Source of the DNA: a virus
Lineage: Duplodnaviria > Heunggongvirae > Uroviricota > Caudoviricetes
Direction: 5' to 3' (one strand)
DNA: 13,342 nt
IMG/VR virus record: IMGVR_UViG_2513237361_000015
Location: 1-13,342 of that record
Positions 3,526-13,342 of the stretch are shown piece by piece. Every line of letters starts with the position of its first letter. The stretch's first letter is position 1. The notes beneath the pieces are model-generated. The model saw nothing but the letters and a program-made list of their open reading frames with translations, did no database searches and was not told the origin of the DNA. The position numbers and the translations under genes were made by a program.

Positions 3526-3876
3526 TCACTTCAGTCGTTCACGGGCCGTCTTCGTCTTATGACACGGCCAGCACAGGCTCTGCAGATTGCAGTCTGCATC
3601 AGTGCCGCCATGCGCTTTAGGGATGATGTGGTCAACGGTTTTCGCCTCACGCACCACACCGACACGCAGGCACAACTGACACAGGCCTTTGTCACGCTTC
3701 AGCACGCGCGCGCGGATAACATCCCACTTCGAACCGTAGCCGCGCTGGTGACGGGATTGTCCTGGCTTGTATTGTTTCCAGCCTTCGCTTTTGTGGCTTT
3801 CGCAGTAGCCTGACGGGTCAGTGGTGGTTTGGCGGCAGCCGCGAACGCGGCAGGCTTTTGGGGTTCGTGGTGGCAT
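3526..3876 (-). CDS. HNH endonuclease (terminase-associated)
   Basis: ORF from ATG 3876 (GGAG 5 nt upstream) has paired Cys clusters (CRVRGC...C, CQLC, CWPC) and the DHIIPKAHGG HNH core; sits immediately upstream of cos and terminase as in HK97-like phages. Confidence 0.85.
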   Translation of the reverse strand: MPPRTPKACRVRGCRQTTTDPSGYCESHKSEGWKQYKPGQSRHQRGYGSKWDVIRARVLKRDKGLCQLCLRVGVVREAKTVDHIIPKAHGGTDADCNLQSLCWPCHKTKTARERLK

Positions 3877-3941: not shown

Positions 3942-4145
3942 TCATTCTTCCTTTTTAATAATGACTTCTCGAGGGCGCAATTGTTGGATAGCACGACAAA
4001 TACAATATGGAATAACTGCCCATGCTACTCCCATTGCTGCACCTGCAGCCTGTTGTGGAGCACTCTGAGCACCGAAAACCCCGAGGATTCCTTCAATAAA
4101 TCCAATAGCACTACACAAAAGACTGATGACCCAGAGAATTTTCAT
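3942..4145 (-). CDS. Small membrane protein (67 aa, two predicted TM helices), function unknown
   Basis: ATG at 4145 with AAGGAG 9 nt upstream; two hydrophobic stretches separated by a short Ala/Gln-rich segment, charged C-terminus KKEE; followed by a terminator. Confidence 0.5.
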   Translation of the reverse strand: MKILWVISLLCSAIGFIEGILGVFGAQSAPQQAAGAAMGVAWAVIPYCICRAIQQLRPREVIIKKEE

Positions 4146-4262
4146 AAACCCAAACTCCTTTTAAATAAACACTTTACTAGGATAATTCTCATAAAATGTT
4201 AGTAAAGTATTTTCAGGAAAATAGCGTATCACTGCCTATTTTTGACACTGATGCCGGGATAA

Positions 4263-4688
4263 TTATTCCGGTCGCTGGAGTTGCTCATGATGATACAGAG
4301 CGAGAATCAGGTCATAAGACCCTTGCCTGTCTTTGTAACCAGTTTTATCAACCAATTCAGCTTTACTGATTCCGGGTAAATCAAGAATCAGATTCGCAAC
4401 TTCAATTGCCCTTTGGTACAACTTACCGCCCTTTTTCTCCCCATGCAGTGGTTTTACATTCTTGAGGTAACCGCTATCCGCTAGGGCGAGAAATGTTGCC
4501 CTTGGGCATATCTTCTTTCTTGACGATTCGCTTTCTGTAACCTCTGCGACAGCTGTATCCCATGCATCACGAGGAGGCATTGAGCTATCAGCAACCAAAT
4601 GATAAGCGATTAAAGCGGCGCGCGCGTATTGAGACATAATGCATCCATATACAAAAATCTCATGATAAGACTTTTCTAATATGAACAC
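4263..4688 (-). CDS. Hypothetical soluble protein (about 124-141 aa), no recognisable domain
   Basis: Open frame immediately 3' of Rz on the minus strand in a lower-GC segment (about 42 percent in a 60-nt hand count). Start is uncertain: GTG 4688 overlaps the Rz 3' end, ATG 4637 has only a weak RBS. Confidence 0.4.
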
Positions 4689-5119
4689 TGTGATCTCACA
4701 TACTCTTGCAGGCCATTCAATTGGTTAGTTATGGTTTCGATGCGCTCTCTGAGAACGAAATAATCCCGTTGAGCGGTGTCAGTAAGTCTGGGGCTGGAAG
4801 CATCATCCACGCCGGAGGCGGCGGTGGTTTTATGCATGTCCGGACAGACTGCTTTGACGTGCAGCCACTTACGACCAGCAGAAACATCAGCACGAAGACT
4901 TTCGATAGTCGCGTTAGCATCAGCAAGCTCCTTTGTATATCTGGCATCGAGTTCAGCTACATTACTTTGACGTTTCTGCATGTCAGCGATAATGGATGCG
5001 GCCTTATCGCGCTGCTTTTTGTAGGTGATGGCGTTATCACGGTAATGATTAACCGCCCATGACAGGCAGACGATGATGCAGATAACCAGAACGGAGATAA
5101 TCGCGGTGACTCTGCTCAT
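4676..5119 (-). CDS. Rz: Rz i-spanin (inner-membrane lysis protein)
   Basis: 147 aa starting [34 protein letters not shown], with TKELADA and ASPRL...RDYF...RER motifs closely resembling lambda Rz; N-terminal TM anchor plus coiled-coil-like body. Confidence 0.9.
4729..4920 (-). CDS. Rz1: Rz1 o-spanin lipoprotein, embedded in Rz in the +1 frame
   Basis: Embedded ORF has lipobox LLVVSGC and CTSKQSV...KPPPPPAW...TPLNGIIS, matching lambda Rz1; internal Met start chosen from the longer 4729..4947 ORF. Confidence 0.85.
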
Positions 5120-5165
5120 ACCTCAATCTCTCTGACCGTTCCGCCAGCTTCTTTGAATTTTGCAA

Positions 5166-5393
5166 TCAGGCTGTCAACTTTATGCTCAAACTGACCATAA
5201 CCAGCCCCGGCAGTGAAGCCCAGATATTGCTGCAACGATCGCCACTGCGTTCTCTTCGGTGCGCTGCTGTTTGGCTTTCTCTGCTACTTTTCCACAACCA
5301 CGAACATTGCCAGTAAAAAACGCTGAGTGCGGCTGCAACCAGCACAACAATACCGCTAGCAATAATTTCTATGATTCCCATTATCTTTACCAT
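5166..5393 (-). CDS. Small hypothetical ORF (75 aa) with N-terminal TM segment; possibly frameshifted
   Basis: N-terminus MVKIMGIIEIIASGIVVLVAAALSVF is TM-like but the rest of the given frame is low-complexity. The adjacent frame after the A6/T6 run (5315-5320) reads TGNVRGCGKVAEKAKQQRTEENAVAIVAAISGLHCRGWLWSV, which looks more protein-like. Weak RBS. Confidence 0.3.
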   Translation of the reverse strand: MVKIMGIIEIIASGIVVLVAAALSVFYWQCSWLWKSSRESQTAAHRRERSGDRCSNIWASLPGLVMVSLSIKLTA

Positions 5394-5420
5394 CTCAGCA
5401 GTTTAGTTTTTGCAAGCATA

Positions 5421-5447
5421 AAAAAACCGCCCGAAGGCGGTTTTATA
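5421..5447 (-). terminator. Strong rho-independent terminator (usable in both directions)
   Basis: AAAAAA-ACCGCC-CGAA-GGCGGT-TTTT: 6-bp stem with tetraloop (UUCG on the minus strand), U-tracts on both sides; lies just 3' of the 93-aa gene. Confidence 0.6.
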
Positions 5448-5462
5448 ATAAATATACTAACC

Positions 5463-5744
5463 TCAGTCTTCCGTTCCATCTGGGTTGACAGGTTTGGTGA
5501 TTGCTTTCAGTCGAACAACTGGATCACCATCACCGTTGCTTACAACTGTTCTAATGGTCTTGTCATCCCGAGGGGTAAATGTTACTTCTACATCAAATCC
5601 CATAGCTGCATGTTCATCACACAAATAAGCGTTAGTATTGTGGGCCCAAATTGCAGATAAATTATCCAGTTCACGTCTCAGACGCACACCGATAATTTTA
5701 TCTGCATGTCTACCACATCCTTCAATGATGCATGTTCCTGACAT
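5463..5744 (-). CDS. Cys-rich small protein (93 aa), possible zinc-binding, function unknown
   Basis: ATG at 5744 with AAGGA 7 nt upstream; Cys at positions 5 and 10 plus a later LCDEH Cys/His pair suggest a small zinc ribbon; placed directly 3' of the methyltransferase. Confidence 0.5.
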   Translation of the reverse strand: MSGTCIIEGCGRHADKIIGVRLRRELDNLSAIWAHNTNAYLCDEHAAMGFDVEVTFTPRDDKTIRTVVSNGDGDPVVRLKAITKPVNPDGTED

Positions 5745-5796
5745 TGTATTTTCCTTCTTTGGTTAACCAAGGAGAAAACTACCATAAACCAGAAAC

Positions 5797-6720
5797 CTAT
5801 TCAGCTTTTTTGCTGTAACTTACTACGCTAGTTAACCTTTTTCTTTCCAGCCCAAGTCGTTCTTTAGCTACTTGGCAGTGTTCATCAAGCAATTCAAAAC
5901 CTACTGACTTTCTGGACAGGCGAGATGCCGCCACAAGTGTAGTGCCTGAGCCTGCAAACGGATCCAAAACAACATCGCCTTCTGTTGTAAACAAACGAAT
6001 AAACCATTCAGGAAGAACTTCGGGGAATGCTGCACTGTGGCCTTTGTTACCACATTCAGTTGCCATGTGCAGCACATTCGTCGGGTATGCCATTTCTCTT
6101 CCCTGCCAGTTTGAAATGTTCTTTCCGAACCCACTACCAACTCGCGACTCATCCCTCATCATGTCCCGCGAGCTTAATTTTTTTAGCCTCTCATTCTTCC
6201 AGTCCCCCACAGGAACCATAACCGCTTCTTGGTACATTGCAAACTTTCTGTTTTTTGTAAAGTGCAGACAGCGTTCCCAAGAATCTCTGAATCTATTAGG
6301 CCATTTACCAGGGAATGAATTCTTCTTATGCCAGATATATTCTTCTGTCCACAGCCAACCCAGCTCTCGCATTTTAAGAATAAGCTCTAAAACATATGTA
6401 TGTCTTTCGCCATTCACTACCTTCTCTTTAATGTTAAGCACAAAGGAGCCTGAAGGCTTAAGAACCCGTAGCAGTTGCTCCGCTATAGGTGAAAACCAGT
6501 CAACATACTTGTCAGGGGCAATGCCACCATAAGTCCTCTTTCGTTGATCTGCATACGGTGGTGAAGTAACGATGAGATCTACAGAAGAATCGTCCATCAT
6601 GGTTAGCAACTCAAGACAGTCTCCTTGATAGAGATTTATCTCATCAGTTTTTATATTAATTGTCGCTTTTTTAAGCATTCCATACATCTCCAGCGAAAGT
6701 AACTGAAGAATAGCAGCCAT
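5797..6720 (-). CDS. DNA methyltransferase, beta-class N6-adenine/N4-cytosine type
   Basis: Motif IV SPPY (TSPPYADQ) lies N-terminal to motif I DPFAGSGTT, the order typical of beta-class amino-methyltransferases; SPPY leans towards N4-cytosine but is not decisive. Likely true start is ATG 6678 (MLKKATINIK, GGAG 9 nt upstream). About 37 percent GC in a 60-nt hand count. Confidence 0.85.
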   Translation of the reverse strand: MAAILQLLSLEMYGMLKKATINIKTDEINLYQGDCLELLTMMDDSSVDLIVTSPPYADQRKRTYGGIAPDKYVDWFSPIAEQLLRVLKPSGSFVLNIKEKVVNGERHTYVLELILKMRELGWLWTEEYIWHKKNSFPGKWPNRFRDSWERCLHFTKNRKFAMYQEAVMVPVGDWKNERLKKLSSRDMMRDESRVGSGFGKNISNWQGREMAYPTNVLHMATECGNKGHSAAFPEVLPEWFIRLFTTEGDVVLDPFAGSGTTLVAASRLSRKSVGFELLDEHCQVAKERLGLERKRLTSVVSYSKKAE

Positions 6721-6793
6721 TCTTCCTGCGGTCCATCTCTTTCTACCCAGTTTTTTAAATTACATGGGTGCTTGGATAACTTGCCGCCGTCCC

Positions 6794-7405
6794 TCACACC
6801 AGCACCGATTTCGCCAGGTTAAACAGCGCGCGGCGTTTATCCAGACCGTTACTACCGCCATTAATAAGCAGCGTGACGCGTCCCAGGTCGCCAGAATGAA
6901 GCAGGCAACCGCGGGAAGCATAGAACCACGCAGCTGAGCGCGCGGCGTATTCATCCTGTTCCAGCAATTCAGGCTGGGTAACAAGGTCGAGTTTTAGTGC
7001 GTAGCCACAGATGCAATAATTACGGAGACCAGTGATTTGAATTAATCCTCTACCACGATATTTCCAGCCATCACCGGGTGCTTTGTTACCCAGTCGGTTG
7101 CTATACACCAGATTGGCAATAGCATCCTGACGAGCTGCATGTCCGGATGTTCTACCAAGGGCATCAGCCTGCTGCTGTGTGATCCTCTTTCCGAACGTCG
7201 CCACCAGCGCAGATGGTGTGTAGTTAAAATTTTCAACTACGGCGCTAAACCCCATCGACTCATGGCCTACCTGAGCGATAAACATTGCCTGATCCGCTGG
7301 TGCTGTAATGCCGAATTCCTTCATCGCCGCATCAATGTGCGGAAACCAGCGCGCAGCCAGCCCGGCGCTAATACCAGCCGCCTTTTGAAATAATTGTTGG
7401 TTCAT
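6794..7405 (-). CDS. Endolysin, glycoside hydrolase family 19 (chitinase-like phage lysozyme)
   Basis: 203 aa with AARWFPHI...EFGIT...AMFIAQVGHES.GF...ENFNY...GDGW.YRGRGLIQITG...QPELL.QDEYAARSAAWF...INGG.NG motifs characteristic of GH19 phage endolysins; ATG overlaps the upstream stop (TAATG). Confidence 0.9.
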   Translation of the reverse strand: MNQQLFQKAAGISAGLAARWFPHIDAAMKEFGITAPADQAMFIAQVGHESMGFSAVVENFNYTPSALVATFGKRITQQQADALGRTSGHAARQDAIANLVYSNRLGNKAPGDGWKYRGRGLIQITGLRNYCICGYALKLDLVTQPELLEQDEYAARSAAWFYASRGCLLHSGDLGRVTLLINGGSNGLDKRRALFNLAKSVLV

Positions 7406-8172: not shown

Positions 8173-8199
8173 AATAAAAAAGCCCCGCTATTACGGGGC
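8173..8199 (-). terminator. Rho-independent terminator after the 213-aa moron gene
   Basis: Plus strand AAATAAAAAA-GCCCCG-CTATTA-CGGGGC; on the minus strand this is a 6-bp GC stem followed by UUUUUUAUUU. Confidence 0.6.
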
Positions 8200-8219: not shown

Positions 8220-8861
8220 TTAAAAGTTTAAAGAAACCATAAAGCTACCAGGCTCTGCACCAGCTTCTTTATTTATTTCTTTACGGATTACCTCATTAAC
8301 CTGAAAAGCCTCATTGTAAACTTTTTCTAAGTTAATTGACGCCTTCATATTATAGTATGTTTTTTCCTCACAAACATATAACCTTATCGGATATGGCCTA
8401 GGGTTGATTGCCTTCCAGTGGGAGATCACAAAATTATAAACTGCAATACCATGACCTTTCATCTTCCCTGCTGTAACATCAATGTTTAGCTGATCTAAAT
8501 ACTCATCGAAGTGTTGCAAGGTGTTTCTCACCCTCACGGAATTAATTTCCTTAATTTCAATATCTTTTATTTTTTGTTGAAGGTAATTACTTCGCTCAAT
8601 ATGCAATCTGAATTGTTCAGGGGATTCTTCCCTAGTCTTATTTTTAGGAACTGCGATTAGTTTCTTGACGTTAGCCGCATCTGAAAGAATGCTATTTATT
8701 AATATATGAATATTGTAATCAATTTTAAAGTAGTAACCAGCATCAGGAAGTGGTGTCTCATGAAAGAGCTCTTCACAGCGTGTTTTTATCGAATGAGTTA
8801 ACAACCATAATTCGTGCAAATAAATAAAATTAAGTTTCATTTGCTCAAAGGTTTTTGACAT
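8220..8861 (-). CDS. Hypothetical protein (213 aa), AT-rich moron in the Q-to-lysis hotspot, no recognisable domain
   Basis: Uninterrupted ORF with ATG 8861 and AGGAG 8 nt upstream, about 30-33 percent GC in hand counts against about 52 percent for the phage backbone; own promoter-like element and terminator; no TM segments or motifs I recognise. Confidence 0.65.
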   Translation of the reverse strand: MSKTFEQMKLNFIYLHELWLLTHSIKTRCEELFHETPLPDAGYYFKIDYNIHILINSILSDAANVKKLIAVPKNKTREESPEQFRLHIERSNYLQQKIKDIEIKEINSVRVRNTLQHFDEYLDQLNIDVTAGKMKGHGIAVYNFVISHWKAINPRPYPIRLYVCEEKTYYNMKASINLEKVYNEAFQVNEVIRKEINKEAGAEPGSFMVSLNF

Positions 8862-9333: not shown

Positions 9334-10086
9334 TTATCTCGTCACTTTTCTTAATTGCGCCTCAGCATATGCTTCTTCCTGCCAGCACTTTGTCACCAGT
9401 TTATCAATGACATCTGCATATCCTTTGTACCACTGATAATCCGTCAGGTCTGGTACCAGCTTCTGGACATGATGCCGCGCCAGTGTGGTTGGTAAACGGC
9501 TAAACCGGTTTCCATTGCAACGCCCACAAATCTTATAAACAGGCATGCCATGAAGCCGGGTTCTTTTTTCATCCAGGACAATACCTTTACCCTTACACCC
9601 TCTGCACGCTGTGCTGACTTCTCCCTTACCATGACAATGCTGACATAGTTCCTTCACCCACTCTTCCTTGATAACAGATTCCCCGTTTCTGGAGTGTTTC
9701 ACCACTTCGCGCAATACATTATGAAATCCCGTACCTGCACAATGCTCACAGCGAGCCTTACTTGCCGCAGATCTGGAATAATCAGCAAAGGCAAAATTCA
9801 CAAGGTAAGGAATGATCTGTAGCCGGGTTTCTTCACTCAATTTATTCAATGTCGGGTTATCCAGTGCCATCGCGTAATTGAGCAGACCTTCAATCGCAAA
9901 CTGAGGATCCTGAACACCAACTTTTGCCAGGAATAAGGCAAACCCAAGCGGTGCTTTCGACTGCACCATCCCCTGCGCAGCCATCACATCCGTAATCGTT
10001 AAACCACCTGAGCCTGTCGCCGGTGCGTCATCGCTCAATTTTGGAGATTTTGGGGAGTAATATTTTGGTAAGGCTTCAAGGTTCAT
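9334..10086 (-). CDS. Q: Late-gene antitermination protein Q (lambda Q family)
   Basis: Matches lambda Q at YSPKSPKLSDD, TDVMAAQGM.QS, FAFADYSRSAAS.ARCEHCAGTG and C-terminal KVTR; carries an extra Cys/His-rich segment (CQHCHGKGEVSTACRGCKGKG, CGRCNG). Start chosen at ATG 10086 (GGAG 7 nt upstream, just after the DUF968 stop). Confidence 0.85.
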   Translation of the reverse strand: MNLEALPKYYSPKSPKLSDDAPATGSGGLTITDVMAAQGMVQSKAPLGFALFLAKVGVQDPQFAIEGLLNYAMALDNPTLNKLSEETRLQIIPYLVNFAFADYSRSAASKARCEHCAGTGFHNVLREVVKHSRNGESVIKEEWVKELCQHCHGKGEVSTACRGCKGKGIVLDEKRTRLHGMPVYKICGRCNGNRFSRLPTTLARHHVQKLVPDLTDYQWYKGYADVIDKLVTKCWQEEAYAEAQLRKVTR

Positions 10087-10099
10087 GCTCGTTCTCCAC

Positions 10100-11095
10100 T
10101 TACGCCAGTACGCCAATTGCCAGCGCACGATCGATAAAACGAAATATCAGCTCCAGTTGGGAGCCATACTTCTCTTCAAATGCCACGGTATCCGCATGCA
10201 GTTCGTCGTGATGCTTTCTGCACAAAGGCAACACAAAGAGGTCATGCGCTTTTGTACCCATTCCCCCCTGACCGTGGCCTATCAGGTGGTGGGGATCATC
10301 AGCAGGCTTTCCACAACATGCACACGGCTGTGTCTTAACCCAGCGCGTGTACTTTTCATTAACCCAGCGGCGACGTTTGGGGCGTAACATAAAAGACTCC
10401 GGCGACTCCGGCTCCACTTTCAGCGCCAGCACCTTTTTCGCTTTATCCTGGATGATGCTGGTGGCAGGAACCGAAGGCACAAGGTCACTTTCCCGGGTGA
10501 CAGACGGCACAACAGGCTTCGGTAATCTCAGTGCCTTACGGGCTGCACTTTCCGGTAAGGCATCCGCCAGATCATTACGAACCAGCCACCAGCACAGTTC
10601 CGGCATTGTCACAACGTGACTGTCATCAAAACCGAGATCCCGACGCACAACAGACAACACCCAGCGGGCACAGTTATCCGTTGCCATTGATTCCAGCCGT
10701 TCCGTGAATTGATCGCGCAGCTGGTTATCACAGTGCCAGCACAGACGGATTGCGCCCGGAGCGTGTCGCATTGTGGTCATGTTCTCGCTGTGCCAGTCGG
10801 AATGAGGCCACTGGCAGCCCTTTTCACGAAGTAACCAGCTTTCAAGACATTCCACGCCACCAGCACGACGGATCACTGCCTCATTGCGGAACACGGCCCG
10901 AACAGCAGGATCATCCGCCAGCGGTTGTGATGCCGCGGGAACGGCACCACTGGCGAAAGATGAATAACGTTCCGGCTCAGGCTCCAGCAGTACACGCCCC
11001 TGCATAAACAGGGGCATCAGCTCTGAACCTGGTCTGAACAATACGATCCCCATACGCGGGGCTATTTCAGGGGTCAGTAGTGCTCTCACGGTCAC
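10100..11095 (-). CDS. DUF968-family prophage protein with HNH-like Cys/His C-terminal motif
   Basis: 331-aa ORF whose C-terminus (CACCGKPADDPHHLIGHG...LCRKHHDELH) fits the zinc-binding motif of DUF968 proteins found next to Q in lambdoid prophages; start GTG 11095 or 11089. Confidence 0.65.
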   Translation of the reverse strand: MTVRALLTPEIAPRMGIVLFRPGSELMPLFMQGRVLLEPEPERYSSFASGAVPAASQPLADDPAVRAVFRNEAVIRRAGGVECLESWLLREKGCQWPHSDWHSENMTTMRHAPGAIRLCWHCDNQLRDQFTERLESMATDNCARWVLSVVRRDLGFDDSHVVTMPELCWWLVRNDLADALPESAARKALRLPKPVVPSVTRESDLVPSVPATSIIQDKAKKVLALKVEPESPESFMLRPKRRRWVNEKYTRWVKTQPCACCGKPADDPHHLIGHGQGGMGTKAHDLFVLPLCRKHHDELHADTVAFEEKYGSQLELIFRFIDRALAIGVLA

Positions 11096-11096
11096 C

Positions 11097-11636
11097 TCAA
11101 TGAACGGTATCGAGCAGCTTTAACAGCTCAGGGAATCGGGATTCGAAGAAATGCGGCTGCGTCTCGCGCGGATTTGCGGGACTGGTGATGTTCTTGCCGA
11201 ACATGCAGCCTTTCGCTGTCAGCGACCAGAATTTTTTGATGTTGTTAATCGCGGTACGGCTGTATCGTTCGCGCTGCTCGACGATCCCCAGCTTCACCAT
11301 CTGGTGATATGCCTGATTAGCTGTCAGGTGGATACCATACTGCTTCAGCAGTGCACTCAGTGACAGCGTGGGGCGGCTTGAACCATCAGGCGCGTCAGCA
11401 GGAGCATCAATGGCATAGCGCGGTGCCAGATTCGGTAAGCCAACAGCCTCCTGGAGTTTCTGACAGGCACCAAGCACTGAAGAGTTAGACAGGTTTAACT
11501 CCCTGCGCATAAAGTCCAGCAGAATCACTCCAGCCTGCATCTTGTCAGCAGCCTGCCCGGATAATTTTTCCGGTACGCTGGTTACCATGTCGAAAGTACG
11601 GATCACCTTCAGATGGAATGACGGGCTGATCCACAT
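11097..11636 (-). pseudogene. Phage antirepressor-like protein, 5'-truncated (only the last part of a KilA-N domain plus the C-terminal domain remains)
   Basis: Recognisable sequence begins at DYVCKELVYAYAMWISPSFHLKV, which resembles the C-terminal end of KilA-N domains; the upstream part of the 318-aa ORF is low-complexity and overlaps the plus-strand fimbrial gene. First in-frame ATG is 11636. Confidence 0.45.
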
Positions 11637-11787
11637 TGCATAGGCATACACCAGTTCCTTGCAGACATAATCGGATTTTGAACTGCGGTTGCCAGCAGAG
11701 GGTACACCTGCAGCATGGCAGGCGGGGCTGAATGTGACGGTTACAGTACAGTGATGGTTGCAGGGATATAAGGAGAAAAAAAGAGAA

Positions 11788-12552
11788 ATGAAAAAGGTGA
11801 CGTTGTTTCTGTTTGCTGCCGGCCTCCTGCCTTCCTGTGTACTGGCCTGGAACACGCCGGGAGAAGATTTCAGCGGAGAGCTTAAGCTGGAAGGCCCGGT
11901 GACCAGCACCCGTAACCCGTGGGTATGGAAAGTCGGACAGGGAAATGAAGGCCTGGAGGTTAAACAGAGCCGCGGTGTTCGTGACGGTGAGCAGGCAATT
12001 CCGGTCGCACTGCCGGCGATGCCCGTTTTACTGGGAAAAACCACCCTGACCACACCGGCAGGACGTGAGGGGCTTTCTCCCCGTGTCAGTTACGGAAAGG
12101 GTACTGAGGGATTTTCATTTGAATGGACAGCACCAGGCGTGGCGGAGGTGACGCTGCCTGTCACCGGAGATAATAACGTCCGGGCAGGCACTTTTGTTTT
12201 CAGAATGCAGGCTGCGGGGGTGTTGCGCCATGTGAAGGACGGACAGCCGGCGTATGCCGGTGTGTATGACGACCTGAATGTGAATGGTCTGCCTGGTGAA
12301 AGCGCAGCCATGAAGACTTCTGATATTCCGGGTGTTCTGCAGAAGATGTTCAGTGGCGAAGGCCCCGGCTGGCTGCAGACAATGACCATCAGTGGTTATT
12401 CAGGAGTGAGTCATTTCAGTGATGCCTCCCTGCGTCAGGTCGAAGGTGCGTATGGCGCACAGATGGTGGCGGGCAGTGGTGAATTACGTCTGAACGGTGC
12501 AATGCCGGAACGCTGGCGGGTGTCACTGCCGGTAAGTATTGAGTACCAGTAA
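11788..12552 (+). CDS. K88/F4-family fimbrial subunit (FaeG/FaeH-like)
   Basis: Signal peptide MKKVTLFLFAAGLLPSCVLA, then WNTPGEDFSGELKLEG...WVWKVGQG...MPVLLGKT, recalled from memory as resembling the mature N-terminus of K88 FaeG; C-terminal strand ends SIEYQ. ATG 11788 with AGGAG upstream. Confidence 0.55.
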   Translation: MKKVTLFLFAAGLLPSCVLAWNTPGEDFSGELKLEGPVTSTRNPWVWKVGQGNEGLEVKQSRGVRDGEQAIPVALPAMPVLLGKTTLTTPAGREGLSPRVSYGKGTEGFSFEWTAPGVAEVTLPVTGDNNVRAGTFVFRMQAAGVLRHVKDGQPAYAGVYDDLNVNGLPGESAAMKTSDIPGVLQKMFSGEGPGWLQTMTISGYSGVSHFSDASLRQVEGAYGAQMVAGSGELRLNGAMPERWRVSLPVSIEYQ

Positions 12553-12568
12553 ACAGGAGGGCGGCCCG

Positions 12569-13342
12569 GTGCTGAATATTATTCATCGTCTGAAGTCCGG
12601 TATGTTTCCGGCTCTGTTTTTTCTGACTTCAGCCAGTGTGCTGGCGCAACCGCTGACTATTCCTCCGGGCCACTGGCAGGAGGGTATGGCTGTGGGCGTG
12701 ACGGAATTCAGCGGCACGCTGTATGTCCGCGATGTGTCCTGGCAGTGGCAGCCCCGCGCTGTGCGTATGAGTTCTCCTGATGCTGTGCAGGCTGGCCTGG
12801 CAGCGGGTAAAGGTGGCATGGTCAGTGAAAGCCGGAGAGGGCAGGATTTTTATATTCTTGGCGGGCATACCACATCACTGACAACTGCCCGTCCGGGGCT
12901 GCAGCCGTCGGTGACATTGCTTCAGGTGACACCATCATCCCCCCGTATTGAGGCCCGGGGAGAACTTGCCCGGGGACAGGTACGTTACGGGGAAATCACG
13001 TTCACGCTGCGCCATCTTCTGGCATGGCAGGACAATATTACTGGCGGTCAGGGCTGGAGCGTGGTCAGCGGAGAGGTGACGCCGGAGGCCGAAAAACAGG
13101 TGAAACGCCAGTTATGGCAGGTGAACGGCTATGAATGGACCCCGGATTATGCCGGATTAACCGCACGTCCTGATGCGTTTATTTCAGGAACTGAGTCGCT
13201 GTTGTCACAGGGGAATGGCAGCCAGCATATTGCCGGTGCCTGGGTGATGTACCTGAGTGATGTGCGGGTGAATTTCCCCGGTGCTGAGGAGCCGGTAAAA
13301 CGCTGGCAGGGTAATCTGACACCGGTGGTGGTGTATTTCTGA
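12569..13342 (+). CDS. Second K88/F4-like fimbrial subunit paralogue, secreted
   Basis: GTG 12569 with AGGAGG 8 nt upstream; signal peptide (LNIIHRLKSGMFPALFFLTSASVLA-QP); same length class and W.W / FSG pattern as the upstream gene; ends VVVYF. Confidence 0.5.
   Translation: MLNIIHRLKSGMFPALFFLTSASVLAQPLTIPPGHWQEGMAVGVTEFSGTLYVRDVSWQWQPRAVRMSSPDAVQAGLAAGKGGMVSESRRGQDFYILGGHTTSLTTARPGLQPSVTLLQVTPSSPRIEARGELARGQVRYGEITFTLRHLLAWQDNITGGQGWSVVSGEVTPEAEKQVKRQLWQVNGYEWTPDYAGLTARPDAFISGTESLLSQGNGSQHIAGAWVMYLSDVRVNFPGAEEPVKRWQGNLTPVVVYF

Follow-up and report, generated by a model that had tools for sequence, protein, structure and literature searches.

A mobile methyltransferase cassette, very likely derived from a type II restriction-modification system, between the endolysin and spanin genes of a lambdoid Escherichia coli prophage

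What are a DNA methyltransferase gene and a small companion gene doing in the middle of a phage lysis cassette? The question is raised by a viral sequence of 13,342 nucleotides (IMG/VR record IMGVR_UViG_2513237361_000015; termed here the window), which matches a 4.8-Mb E. coli contig (GCA_000208565.2) at 100% identity and which represents the late region of an HK97-like lambdoid prophage with its genes on the minus strand. Between the GH19 endolysin gene and the Rz/Rz1 spanin genes, as a first-pass annotation had noticed and as is confirmed here, this strand encodes a methyltransferase (MTase) and a protein of 93 amino acids (aa). That annotation regarded the two genes as an inserted module, and it asked whether the MTase is an orphan anti-restriction enzyme, whether its partner is a regulator or part of an undescribed two-gene system, and how spanins are expressed from behind a very stable terminator. 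The comparisons described below indicate that the region is almost certainly an inserted, mobile promoter-to-terminator cassette (i.e., a moron) of about 1.32 kb, and that it very likely derives from a type II restriction-modification (R-M) system that lost its endonuclease.

Window positions 5419-6742 constitute a single block of homology to cassettes in unrelated phages, the flanks being unrelated; identity across the block is 80.8% to three of these cassettes (L031, L032 and L034), 78% to another (L067) and about 72% to two more (L028 and L074). The block starts 7 nt upstream of a conserved -35 promoter hexamer and ends with the U-run of the terminator, and its GC content is 39-48%, as against 49-53% in the flanks. 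Because the homology runs exactly from promoter to terminator end, the mobile unit appears to be an entire transcription unit. That it is an insertion, as had been supposed, is borne out by relatives that lack it: SKA5, which is 96-98% identical in DNA to the window on both sides, has contiguous holin-holin-GH19-Rz genes, its homology stopping at window position 6921 and restarting at 3876 (the break at 6921 is found against E. coli genomes as well), and in CharmingMan the i-spanin gene begins within a few bases of the endolysin stop codon. The features by which morons are recognized are present--namely, flanking genes that are adjacent in relatives, a terminator of its own and a GC content unlike that of the neighbouring genes. 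A promoter of its own, active in the lysogen, is a prediction: a -35 hexamer and an extended -10 element occur in all copies, with a weak match to consensus. In having its own terminator and an atypical GC content the cassette resembles lambdoid morons, such as lambda bor and 933W ant, the latter of which is likewise an addition at the point where R and Rz meet in a late operon that depends on Q; it differs from both in its cargo, a gene pair apparently derived from an R-M system. The example of ant also implies that lysis genes are contiguous less regularly than the first-pass annotation assumed.

At megablast sensitivity the block occurs in none of 5,426 complete E. coli genomes, and the 93-aa protein has no match in 50,697 phage records, those for phage SE2 included. 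Dozens of contigs from draft E. coli assemblies and metagenomes do have the same arrangement, and both open reading frames (ORFs) are intact in more than 100 contig blocks. Within temperate phages of Enterobacterales, the MTase and small-protein genes occupy, as a pair, at least seven positions, none of which includes a nuclease gene: among these are the endolysin/spanin junction of a second, unrelated lysis cassette (endolysin phrog_873 and spanin phrog_214; L031-34), which further weakens the contiguity assumption, the interval between Q and a holin gene (L019 and L028-30), a site after the spanins and ahead of terminase (L023-27), and the cargo region of a P2-like prophage (L022). Among the IMG/VR matches, 12 of 15 have the pair without a nuclease. 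The pair lies almost always within the late operon and in the late orientation, and every phage copy has the same promoter and a terminator.

The MTase ORF (5797-6720) matches PF01555 with a score of 150.5 bits against a cutoff of 26.7 (E = 8.8e-44), and within it SPPY near the N-terminus precedes DPFAGSGTT near the C-terminus--that is, motif IV precedes the S-adenosylmethionine (AdoMet) motif I--which is the order characteristic of the beta class to which the enzyme had been assigned. Its true start is probably the ATG at 6678 (MLKK..., 293 aa), which is the conserved start in all homologous cassettes; the upstream ATG at 6720 falls within the conserved promoter spacer, between the -35 and -10 hexamers. 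Among solved structures the closest relative is M.PvuII (1boo), an N4-cytosine MTase that aligns over its full length (phmmer E = 4e-34) and that shares the domain, the motif order and SPP[YF] with other beta-class N4-cytosine MTases; the next matches in PDB are 2zie, a 'putative modification methylase' with no stated base, and then the cytosine-N4 MTases 8s9m and 8s9n. On this comparison N4-cytosine methylation is a fairly safe prediction. The kinship with M.PvuII is remote, however, and differs in further respects: the predicted target (discussed below) is GGWCC rather than CAGCTG, and the cassette encodes neither a helix-turn-helix (HTH) controller (C) protein nor a nuclease but, instead, a C2CH-type partner. 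The enzyme does not look catalytically dead, as the first-pass annotation had allowed that it might be, because the catalytic SPPY and the AdoMet FxGxG motifs are intact and because selection upon it is strongly purifying (a ratio of nonsynonymous to synonymous substitution rates, dN/dS, of about 0.04 in nuclease-less phage cassettes, with dS saturated).

The origin of the pair is indicated by its bacterial and plasmid relatives. A degenerate DNA pattern taken from the core of the small-protein family retrieved 25 bacterial loci from many phyla, 22 of them with an intact small ORF. Sixteen of the 22 encode an MTase of this family, a nuclease with an RE_EcoO109I domain (PF14511; E values down to 3e-92) and the small protein, and three encode the MTase without a nuclease, such pairs also being found on chromosomes beside housekeeping genes. 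The usual gene order in the R-M loci is MTase, nuclease, small protein, with both order and orientation varying. The same trio resides on small ColE1-type mobilizable plasmids of Salmonella, Klebsiella, Citrobacter, Enterobacter and Raoultella, and on plasmids of Aeromonas, Acinetobacter and Photobacterium; the plasmid nuclease bears the NCBI name 'PmeII family'. To the trio (e.g., ORF5-7 of plasmid pCS36-4CPA) the window's MTase is 67-70% identical over its full length (69-70%, without gaps, to the Aeromonas-plasmid and Hafnia enzymes) and the small protein 47-55% identical. The promoter (TGGACC-17-TAnnAT) is shared too, and all of the phage cassettes, like the Hafnia and plasmid operons, have a related terminator downstream of the small gene. 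Unlike the trio, the window and the phage copies lack the endonuclease gene and have, in its place, a spacer of 52-55 nt with an inverted repeat. As judged by homology, then, the genes for the MTase and the small protein belong, together with a third for the nuclease, to a widespread type II R-M family, rather than forming an undescribed two-gene system; the window by itself does not qualify as a type II R-M system, there being no nuclease gene in it, and the nuclease is encoded only in the bacterial and plasmid relatives. The trio had already been listed, without a functional test, in a 2016 paper on pCS36-4CPA, in which the small ORF is called a putative THAP domain and the methylase is reported to be 99% identical to a gene of phage SE2 (PMC5935869). 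This near-identity indicates transfer from plasmid to phage. Virulent Salmonella phage SE2 contains a disrupted copy of the MTase gene (L004, 3001-3844), which is matched in two pieces.

Which sequence the enzyme methylates is suggested by its own promoter. When the upstream regions of seven phage cassettes and of the Hafnia R-M operon are aligned, invariant columns occur at four places only: TGG(A/T)CC, an extended -10 element (TGnTAnnnT) 17 nt downstream of it, a short leader motif and the Shine-Dalgarno sequence. The single variant of the -35 hexamer (GGTCC, in L022) keeps the GGWCC palindrome, and TGGACC-17-TAnnAT also lies upstream of the MTase gene on Salmonella, Citrobacter, Aeromonas and Acinetobacter plasmids. 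In three of these plasmids, of 5.2-5.7 kb, two of which are related to each other, the promoter contains the sole GGWCC site, where 8.3-10.1 are expected (Poisson P for at most one site about 1e-3 or less per plasmid), and GGSCC is not similarly depleted in the Aeromonas plasmid (11 versus 17.6 expected). The window itself has five GGWCC sites versus 22.5 expected from shuffles, one of the five being the cassette's -35 hexamer; the ratio is 0.39 relative to a maximal-order Markov model, a stronger depletion than for the other 5-mer palindromes tested. Pseudomonas mendocina DNA is GGWCC-modified, and methylation motifs there match the sites of known restriction endonucleases, PmeII among them (PMC8112702), from which we infer that PmeII recognizes GGWCC. 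The invariant TGGWCC -35 hexamer, the depletion of sites in the plasmids and the apparent specificity of PmeII together suggest an enzyme that methylates its own -35 hexamer, so that GGWCC is the predicted target, at a confidence somewhat better than even. N4-methylcytosine (m4C) at GGWCC, without a REBASE match, was seen in marine viral genomes in a 2022 metagenomic survey (PMC8919816). A precedent for the promoter arrangement is CfrBI, the R-M genes of which are reported to be controlled through a target site in the promoter (bioRxiv 10.64898/2025.12.04.692298); there, too, a single recognition site lies in the MTase promoter region. Unlike that of CfrBI, the site in the cassette coincides with the -35 hexamer of an operon transcribed in one direction, and any effect of methylation is a prediction. 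Site-avoidance statistics for the 8-kb host loci were rejected as a means of fixing the specificity, GGWCC being low there with or without the trio.

Whether the cassette benefits its carriers, and how, may be considered in light of these findings. It might be viewed as a decaying, functionless leftover of an R-M system or as an accident of recombination, and indeed gene scars abound around it and this strain's prophage is defective. Both ORFs, however, are intact throughout the contig blocks mentioned above, the catalytic motifs are kept, dN/dS is 0.04-0.2 with saturated dS, and promoter and terminator are conserved; the leftover reading is already contradicted by these selection data and is barely credible. 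No cognate endonuclease gene was found beside the MTase in the window, in the seven phage contexts or in 12 viral contigs. Because no phage copy has a nuclease partner, the earlier description of the enzyme as an orphan stands, and an anti-restriction role is a reasonable reading. The cassette is like the orphan MTases of phages P1, T4 and 933W (Dam-type; PMC3837797) in being phage-borne, in lacking a cognate nuclease, in its presumed role of self-protection and in its predicted late expression, and it is unlike them in that the predicted product is m4C rather than N6-methyladenine and in that the gene belongs to a promoter-to-terminator cassette with a conserved second gene. On balance, protection from restriction would seem to be the main benefit. 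Morons commonly benefit the lysogen, and the cassette could instead serve mainly as a module of lysogenic conversion that acts epigenetically, altering host expression or blocking methylation-sensitive processes in the lysogen rather than protecting phage DNA. With a promoter and terminator of its own it is probably expressed from the prophage, and it persists in a defective prophage remnant, as such a module might. Yet it is found almost always in the late operon and in the late orientation, it clearly derives from an R-M system circulating in the same hosts, and GGWCC is rare in these genomes, which leaves few regulatory targets; such a role is improbable.

The 93-aa protein had been described as Cys-rich, but it contains only three cysteines; its conserved C5, C10, C42 and H45 form instead a C-x4-C...C-x2-H (C2CH) signature, and RLRR and W33 are conserved as well. 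Its close relatives fall into 12 clusters from Enterobacterales only, and a profile search extends these to 125 clusters at 50% identity; no family in Pfam, PHROGs, NCBIfam or PADLOC includes it. Structure prediction, which the first-pass annotation had put forward as a check, was informative in part: given an alignment of 70 sequences, AlphaFold2 returned a confident model (predicted local distance difference test, pLDDT, of 92.6) consisting mostly of beta structure, for which no fold match was found in PDB or BFVD. (An initial model from 13 sequences, with a pLDDT of 53.6, made the fold search meaningless.) The signature of THAP domains is C-x2-4-C-x35-53-C-x2-H; the 93-aa protein has the C-x4-C and C-x2-H elements with a spacer of 31 residues. 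The THAP assignment claimed for ORF5 of pCS36-4CPA (PMC5935869) was not reproduced, no sequence or fold similarity to THAP domains being detected. Two other candidate identities were set aside: an HNH or other nuclease, inasmuch as the candidate His35 is not conserved, and a translational activator like Com of phage Mu, from which the zinc ligands and gene order differ and to which no similarity was detected.

Distant members of the family occur in other settings. On high-GC, Actinobacteria-like contigs the domain is encoded as the C-terminal part of XRE-type HTH proteins or of large proteins that contain a sigma-70 region 4 motif (P0094, P0100, P0102 and P0106; L060-L063); the HTH-fused relatives were rejected as a link to restriction-modification, their neighbourhoods showing no clear R-M system. 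In a metagenome-assembled genome of Dehalococcoidia (L043, 5626-7886), a relative belongs to an MTase-nuclease-small gene operon in which the nuclease is of the unrelated TdeIII family and the MTase has a different architecture. Because of this pairing, the small protein does not seem to be tied to one nuclease fold.

In nuclease-less cassettes the small gene, with dN/dS of 0.06-0.2, is itself under purifying selection, which means that its function needs no nuclease in cis. One possibility is that the protein is a cofactor of the MTase, required for activity, stability or target choice, the two forming an obligate enzyme pair. Its co-occurrence is indeed tightest with this MTase family (19-20 of the 22 bacterial loci, all seven phage contexts and 12 viral contigs), the spacing of 52-55 nt between the two genes is conserved in phage cassettes, and one database protein (P0126) apparently fuses the domain to an MTase fragment. 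A weak signal of co-evolution points the same way: for the distance matrices of 14 trios, the partial correlation of the small protein with the MTase, given the nuclease, is 0.30, and for the reverse -0.07. On the other hand, members of the family also occur alone or HTH-fused away from any MTase, gene order and orientation relative to the MTase vary, and PvuII-type beta MTases are self-sufficient monomers, so that a cofactor role is unlikely. A role as regulator of the cassette, one that is controller-like and that may act at the promoter, is put forward tentatively, at a confidence somewhat short of even. Like C proteins, it is the product of a small third gene of an R-M operon, and some relatives are fused to an XRE-type HTH; unlike them, the 93-aa protein itself lacks an HTH, is modelled as all-beta with a zinc motif, has no C-box that could be found, and is encoded downstream rather than upstream of the nuclease gene.

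The inverted repeat ahead of the small gene (5750-5780), which contains an exact palindrome at 5760-5769, is kept in six of seven phage cassettes and is without counterpart in bacterial R-M operons that have a nuclease gene. It matches no Rfam family and would form a weak RNA structure (consensus -0.97 kcal/mol, z = -0.5); the notion of an RNA hairpin hiding the small gene's ribosome-binding site was dropped in view of this unexceptional energy and of weak covariation. Two candidate operators were also rejected: a promoter repeat (GAAGAAT/ATTCTTC) that is not conserved in other cassettes, and an operator common to the promoter and the intergenic repeat, there being no second TGGTTAACCA-like site near the promoter.

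The terminator that closes the cassette is as stable as first described (a 9-bp stem, a UUCG loop and a U7 tail; -13.7 kcal/mol, z = -3.6, with none of 200 shuffled sequences folding as well), and it is the cassette's own, present in every copy. The puzzle of spanin expression that it seemed to pose is no real difficulty, since a Q antiterminator, whose gene lies upstream, drives the late operon. In lambdoid phages, polymerase modified by Q does not stop at terminators, and one terminator-like site, at 8182-8199, already stands in the way of late transcription; Q-modified polymerase presumably passes the cassette terminator as well, with the result that Rz/Rz1 would be expressed.

The interval between the terminator and Rz is not empty but holds remnants of two genes. 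Positions 5120-5241 represent the end of a GH24 lysozyme gene of the lambda type (its final 40 codons, from which 1 bp has been deleted). More than 2,000 E. coli genomes have GH24 genes whose 3' ends match this remnant at 96.5% identity, and its identity to mEp460 is 93%; the remnant keeps the GAGG ribosome-binding site of Rz and an ATGA stop/start overlap. Positions 5228-5290 are 81% identical to L002 (blastn), and two stretches of translation, MGIIEIIASG... and ...KVAEKAKQQRTEENAVA, correspond to the i-spanin reading frame that follows the endolysin gene of CharmingMan. The two remnants join at a short stretch, around 5228-5241, that resembles both parents, and a 75-aa ORF at 5166-5393 was discarded as a real gene, being a fusion of the two remnants read across this junction. 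The GH19 endolysin gene is likewise a chimera: identity to SKA5 and E. coli prophages is 96-98% over the first two thirds, the last 42 codons are CharmingMan-like, and the junction lies near 6921. The 30 nt just past the terminator (5394-5420) may be the 3' end of another GH19 endolysin gene (LAKTKLLRW followed by a stop codon).

The explanation that accounts best for the locus as a whole, and that may be held with somewhat more confidence than not, runs as follows. The cassette would first have landed between a GH19 endolysin gene and its spanin gene or genes; a later recombination would then have swapped those spanins for a lambda-type R'-Rz-Rz1 segment, leaving the two gene scars. The MTase would be an active N4-cytosine enzyme that most likely methylates GGWCC and that could be expressed by two routes. 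In the lysogen it would be transcribed from its own sigma-70 promoter, where methylation of the TGGACC -35 hexamer probably feeds back on transcription, much as is reported for CfrBI; during late expression it would be a passenger of the Q-antiterminated transcript, which would continue through the terminator into Rz/Rz1. Progeny and prophage DNA would be protected from GGWCC-specific restriction systems, such systems presumably circulating on small mobilizable plasmids in the same hosts. The small protein would be a conserved partner kept with the MTase, the best guess being a regulator of the cassette.

Several observations weigh against parts of this explanation. The promoter matches the consensus at 8 of 12 positions and is missed by a consensus scan. 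The Salmonella and Citrobacter plasmids show some depletion of GGSCC as well (3 versus 12-13 expected), and GGWCC is low in all of the 8-kb host loci, at a ratio of 0.66 for loci with the trio versus 0.58 for loci without it. RGGNCCY, the site of the EcoO109I enzyme whose name the Pfam nuclease domain bears, does not fit the promoter motif, and the family name of the nuclease does not fix its specificity. Any benefit from late expression is limited to intact relatives, because the prophage here is a remnant. As regards a regulatory function, the small protein has no recognisable DNA-binding fold (a threshold as lax as E<=10 gave no HTH match in Pfam), a search for a conserved operator found none, and the isoelectric point (pI) ranges from 4.9 to 11.3 across the family, the Enterobacterales members being acidic (pI 5.2). 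Moreover, the small gene usually lies directly downstream of the nuclease gene, often overlapping it, and because of this a role linked to the nuclease fits as well as a regulatory one.

The form that such a role might take is that of an anti-restriction factor that inhibits the PmeII/EcoO109I-type nuclease: within R-M operons the protein would buffer the nuclease during establishment, and within phages MTase and inhibitor would constitute a double counter-defence. The abutting or overlapping genes suggest coupled synthesis of nuclease and small protein, the acidity of the Enterobacterales proteins would suit an inhibitor, and phages keep the protein under purifying selection without the nuclease. 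Yet the acidity is not consistent across the family, the distance matrices (weakly) track the MTase and not the nuclease, pairs without a nuclease exist in bacterial chromosomes, and one relative accompanies the TdeIII nuclease instead; nor do we know of any other R-M system with a gene for a protein that inhibits its nuclease. Inhibition of the nuclease is quite unlikely.

Returning to the regulatory interpretation, a bolder version can be framed, though it is doubtful as a whole: the 93-aa C2CH protein would represent a new class of R-M accessory protein with an unseen fold and would form, with the MTase and the GGWCC-containing -35 hexamer, a self-tuning circuit in which the promoter senses its own methylation and the small protein reads or sets it (or else modulates the MTase or the nuclease). 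The circuit would have been taken over intact by temperate phages, for which it would serve as a portable anti-restriction cassette, and the enzyme would be the first characterised m4C MTase specific for GGWCC.

The coordinates of these features are collected in Table 1. Read along the minus strand, the gene order is Q, a 213-aa ORF, two holins (PF16931 and PF05449), the GH19 endolysin, the MTase, the 93-aa ORF, the terminator, Rz/Rz1, a DUF6979 gene, an HNH endonuclease, TerS and TerL.

Table 1. Features of the lysis region and of the inserted cassette, in window coordinates
Feature	Position	Strand	Basis or remark
Q-type antiterminator	9334-10128	-	PF03589 on the equivalent gene in L005-L014
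GH19 endolysin	6794-7405	-	PF00182; chimeric
Mobile cassette (moron): promoter, MTase, small protein, terminator	5419-6742	-	Homology block; lower GC
Predicted sigma-70 promoter	6707-6735	-	-35 TGGACC 6735-6730; 17-nt spacer with TG; -10 TATTCT 6712-6707
Beta-class PvuII-like MTase, 293 aa	5797-6678	-	PF01555; longest ORF reaches 6720
Inverted repeat centred on TGGTTAACCA	5750-5780	-	Overlaps Shine-Dalgarno sequence of 93-aa gene
93-aa C2CH zinc-motif protein	5463-5744	-	Uncharacterised family accompanying the MTase
Intrinsic cassette terminator	5423-5444 or, more widely, 5416-5444	-	Hairpin and U tail
Frameshifted 5' remnant of CharmingMan-type i-spanin gene (scar)	5242-5393	-	blastn and translations
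3' remnant of lambda-type GH24 lysozyme (R) gene, 1-bp deletion	5120-5241	-	Identity to GH24 genes
Rz i-spanin	4676-5119	-	PF03245, E = 3.5e-39
Embedded Rz1 o-spanin (lipoprotein) ORF	4729-4947	-	Lipobox LVVSGC

That the prophage of the host strain is a remnant is evident at both ends of the window: at the left end (1-982) the portal gene is split into two ORFs, and at the right end (11097-13342) a truncated KilA-N-type gene lies beside K88-like fimbrial genes. Other assemblies (L005-L013) carry intact versions of the same phage. Further cargo-like genes are found nearby. The slot between Q and the holins is a classic cargo site, being the location of stx in Stx phages, and it is occupied here by the 213-aa ORF (8220-8861, minus strand), which has a GC content of 34-36% and a terminator of its own (8182-8199, minus strand). 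No family in Pfam, PHROG or PADLOC includes this ORF, and its only homologues are hypothetical proteins encoded by prophages of Enterobacterales; in some related prophages the slot is filled by another small gene. Between Rz and the HNH endonuclease (3942-4688, minus strand) lie two more such genes, encoding the DUF6979 protein (phrog_5039) and a 67-aa membrane-like protein (phrog_12304), and in SKA5 this slot holds a different gene.

In one respect the locus is ordinary, being a moron that carries a phage orphan methylase. It is unusual in comprising a complete R-M transcription unit minus the nuclease, in encoding an unannotated zinc-motif protein without a fold match, and in having its predicted recognition site within its own promoter. 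For annotation, the start of the MTase, the two gene scars and the chimeric endolysin correct automatic gene calls. For phage biology, the cassette offers a clean, datable example of how temperate phages acquire counter-defence: a whole transcription unit would have been taken from an R-M system circulating on plasmids, its nuclease lost, and the remainder placed repeatedly in the late region. For the biology of restriction-modification, it draws attention to a type II family of many phyla, plasmids and phages that has a conserved, unannotated third gene and a predicted recognition site built into its own -35 hexamer, the study of which could reveal a mode of R-M control that does not rely on an HTH protein and could assign m4C GGWCC specificity.

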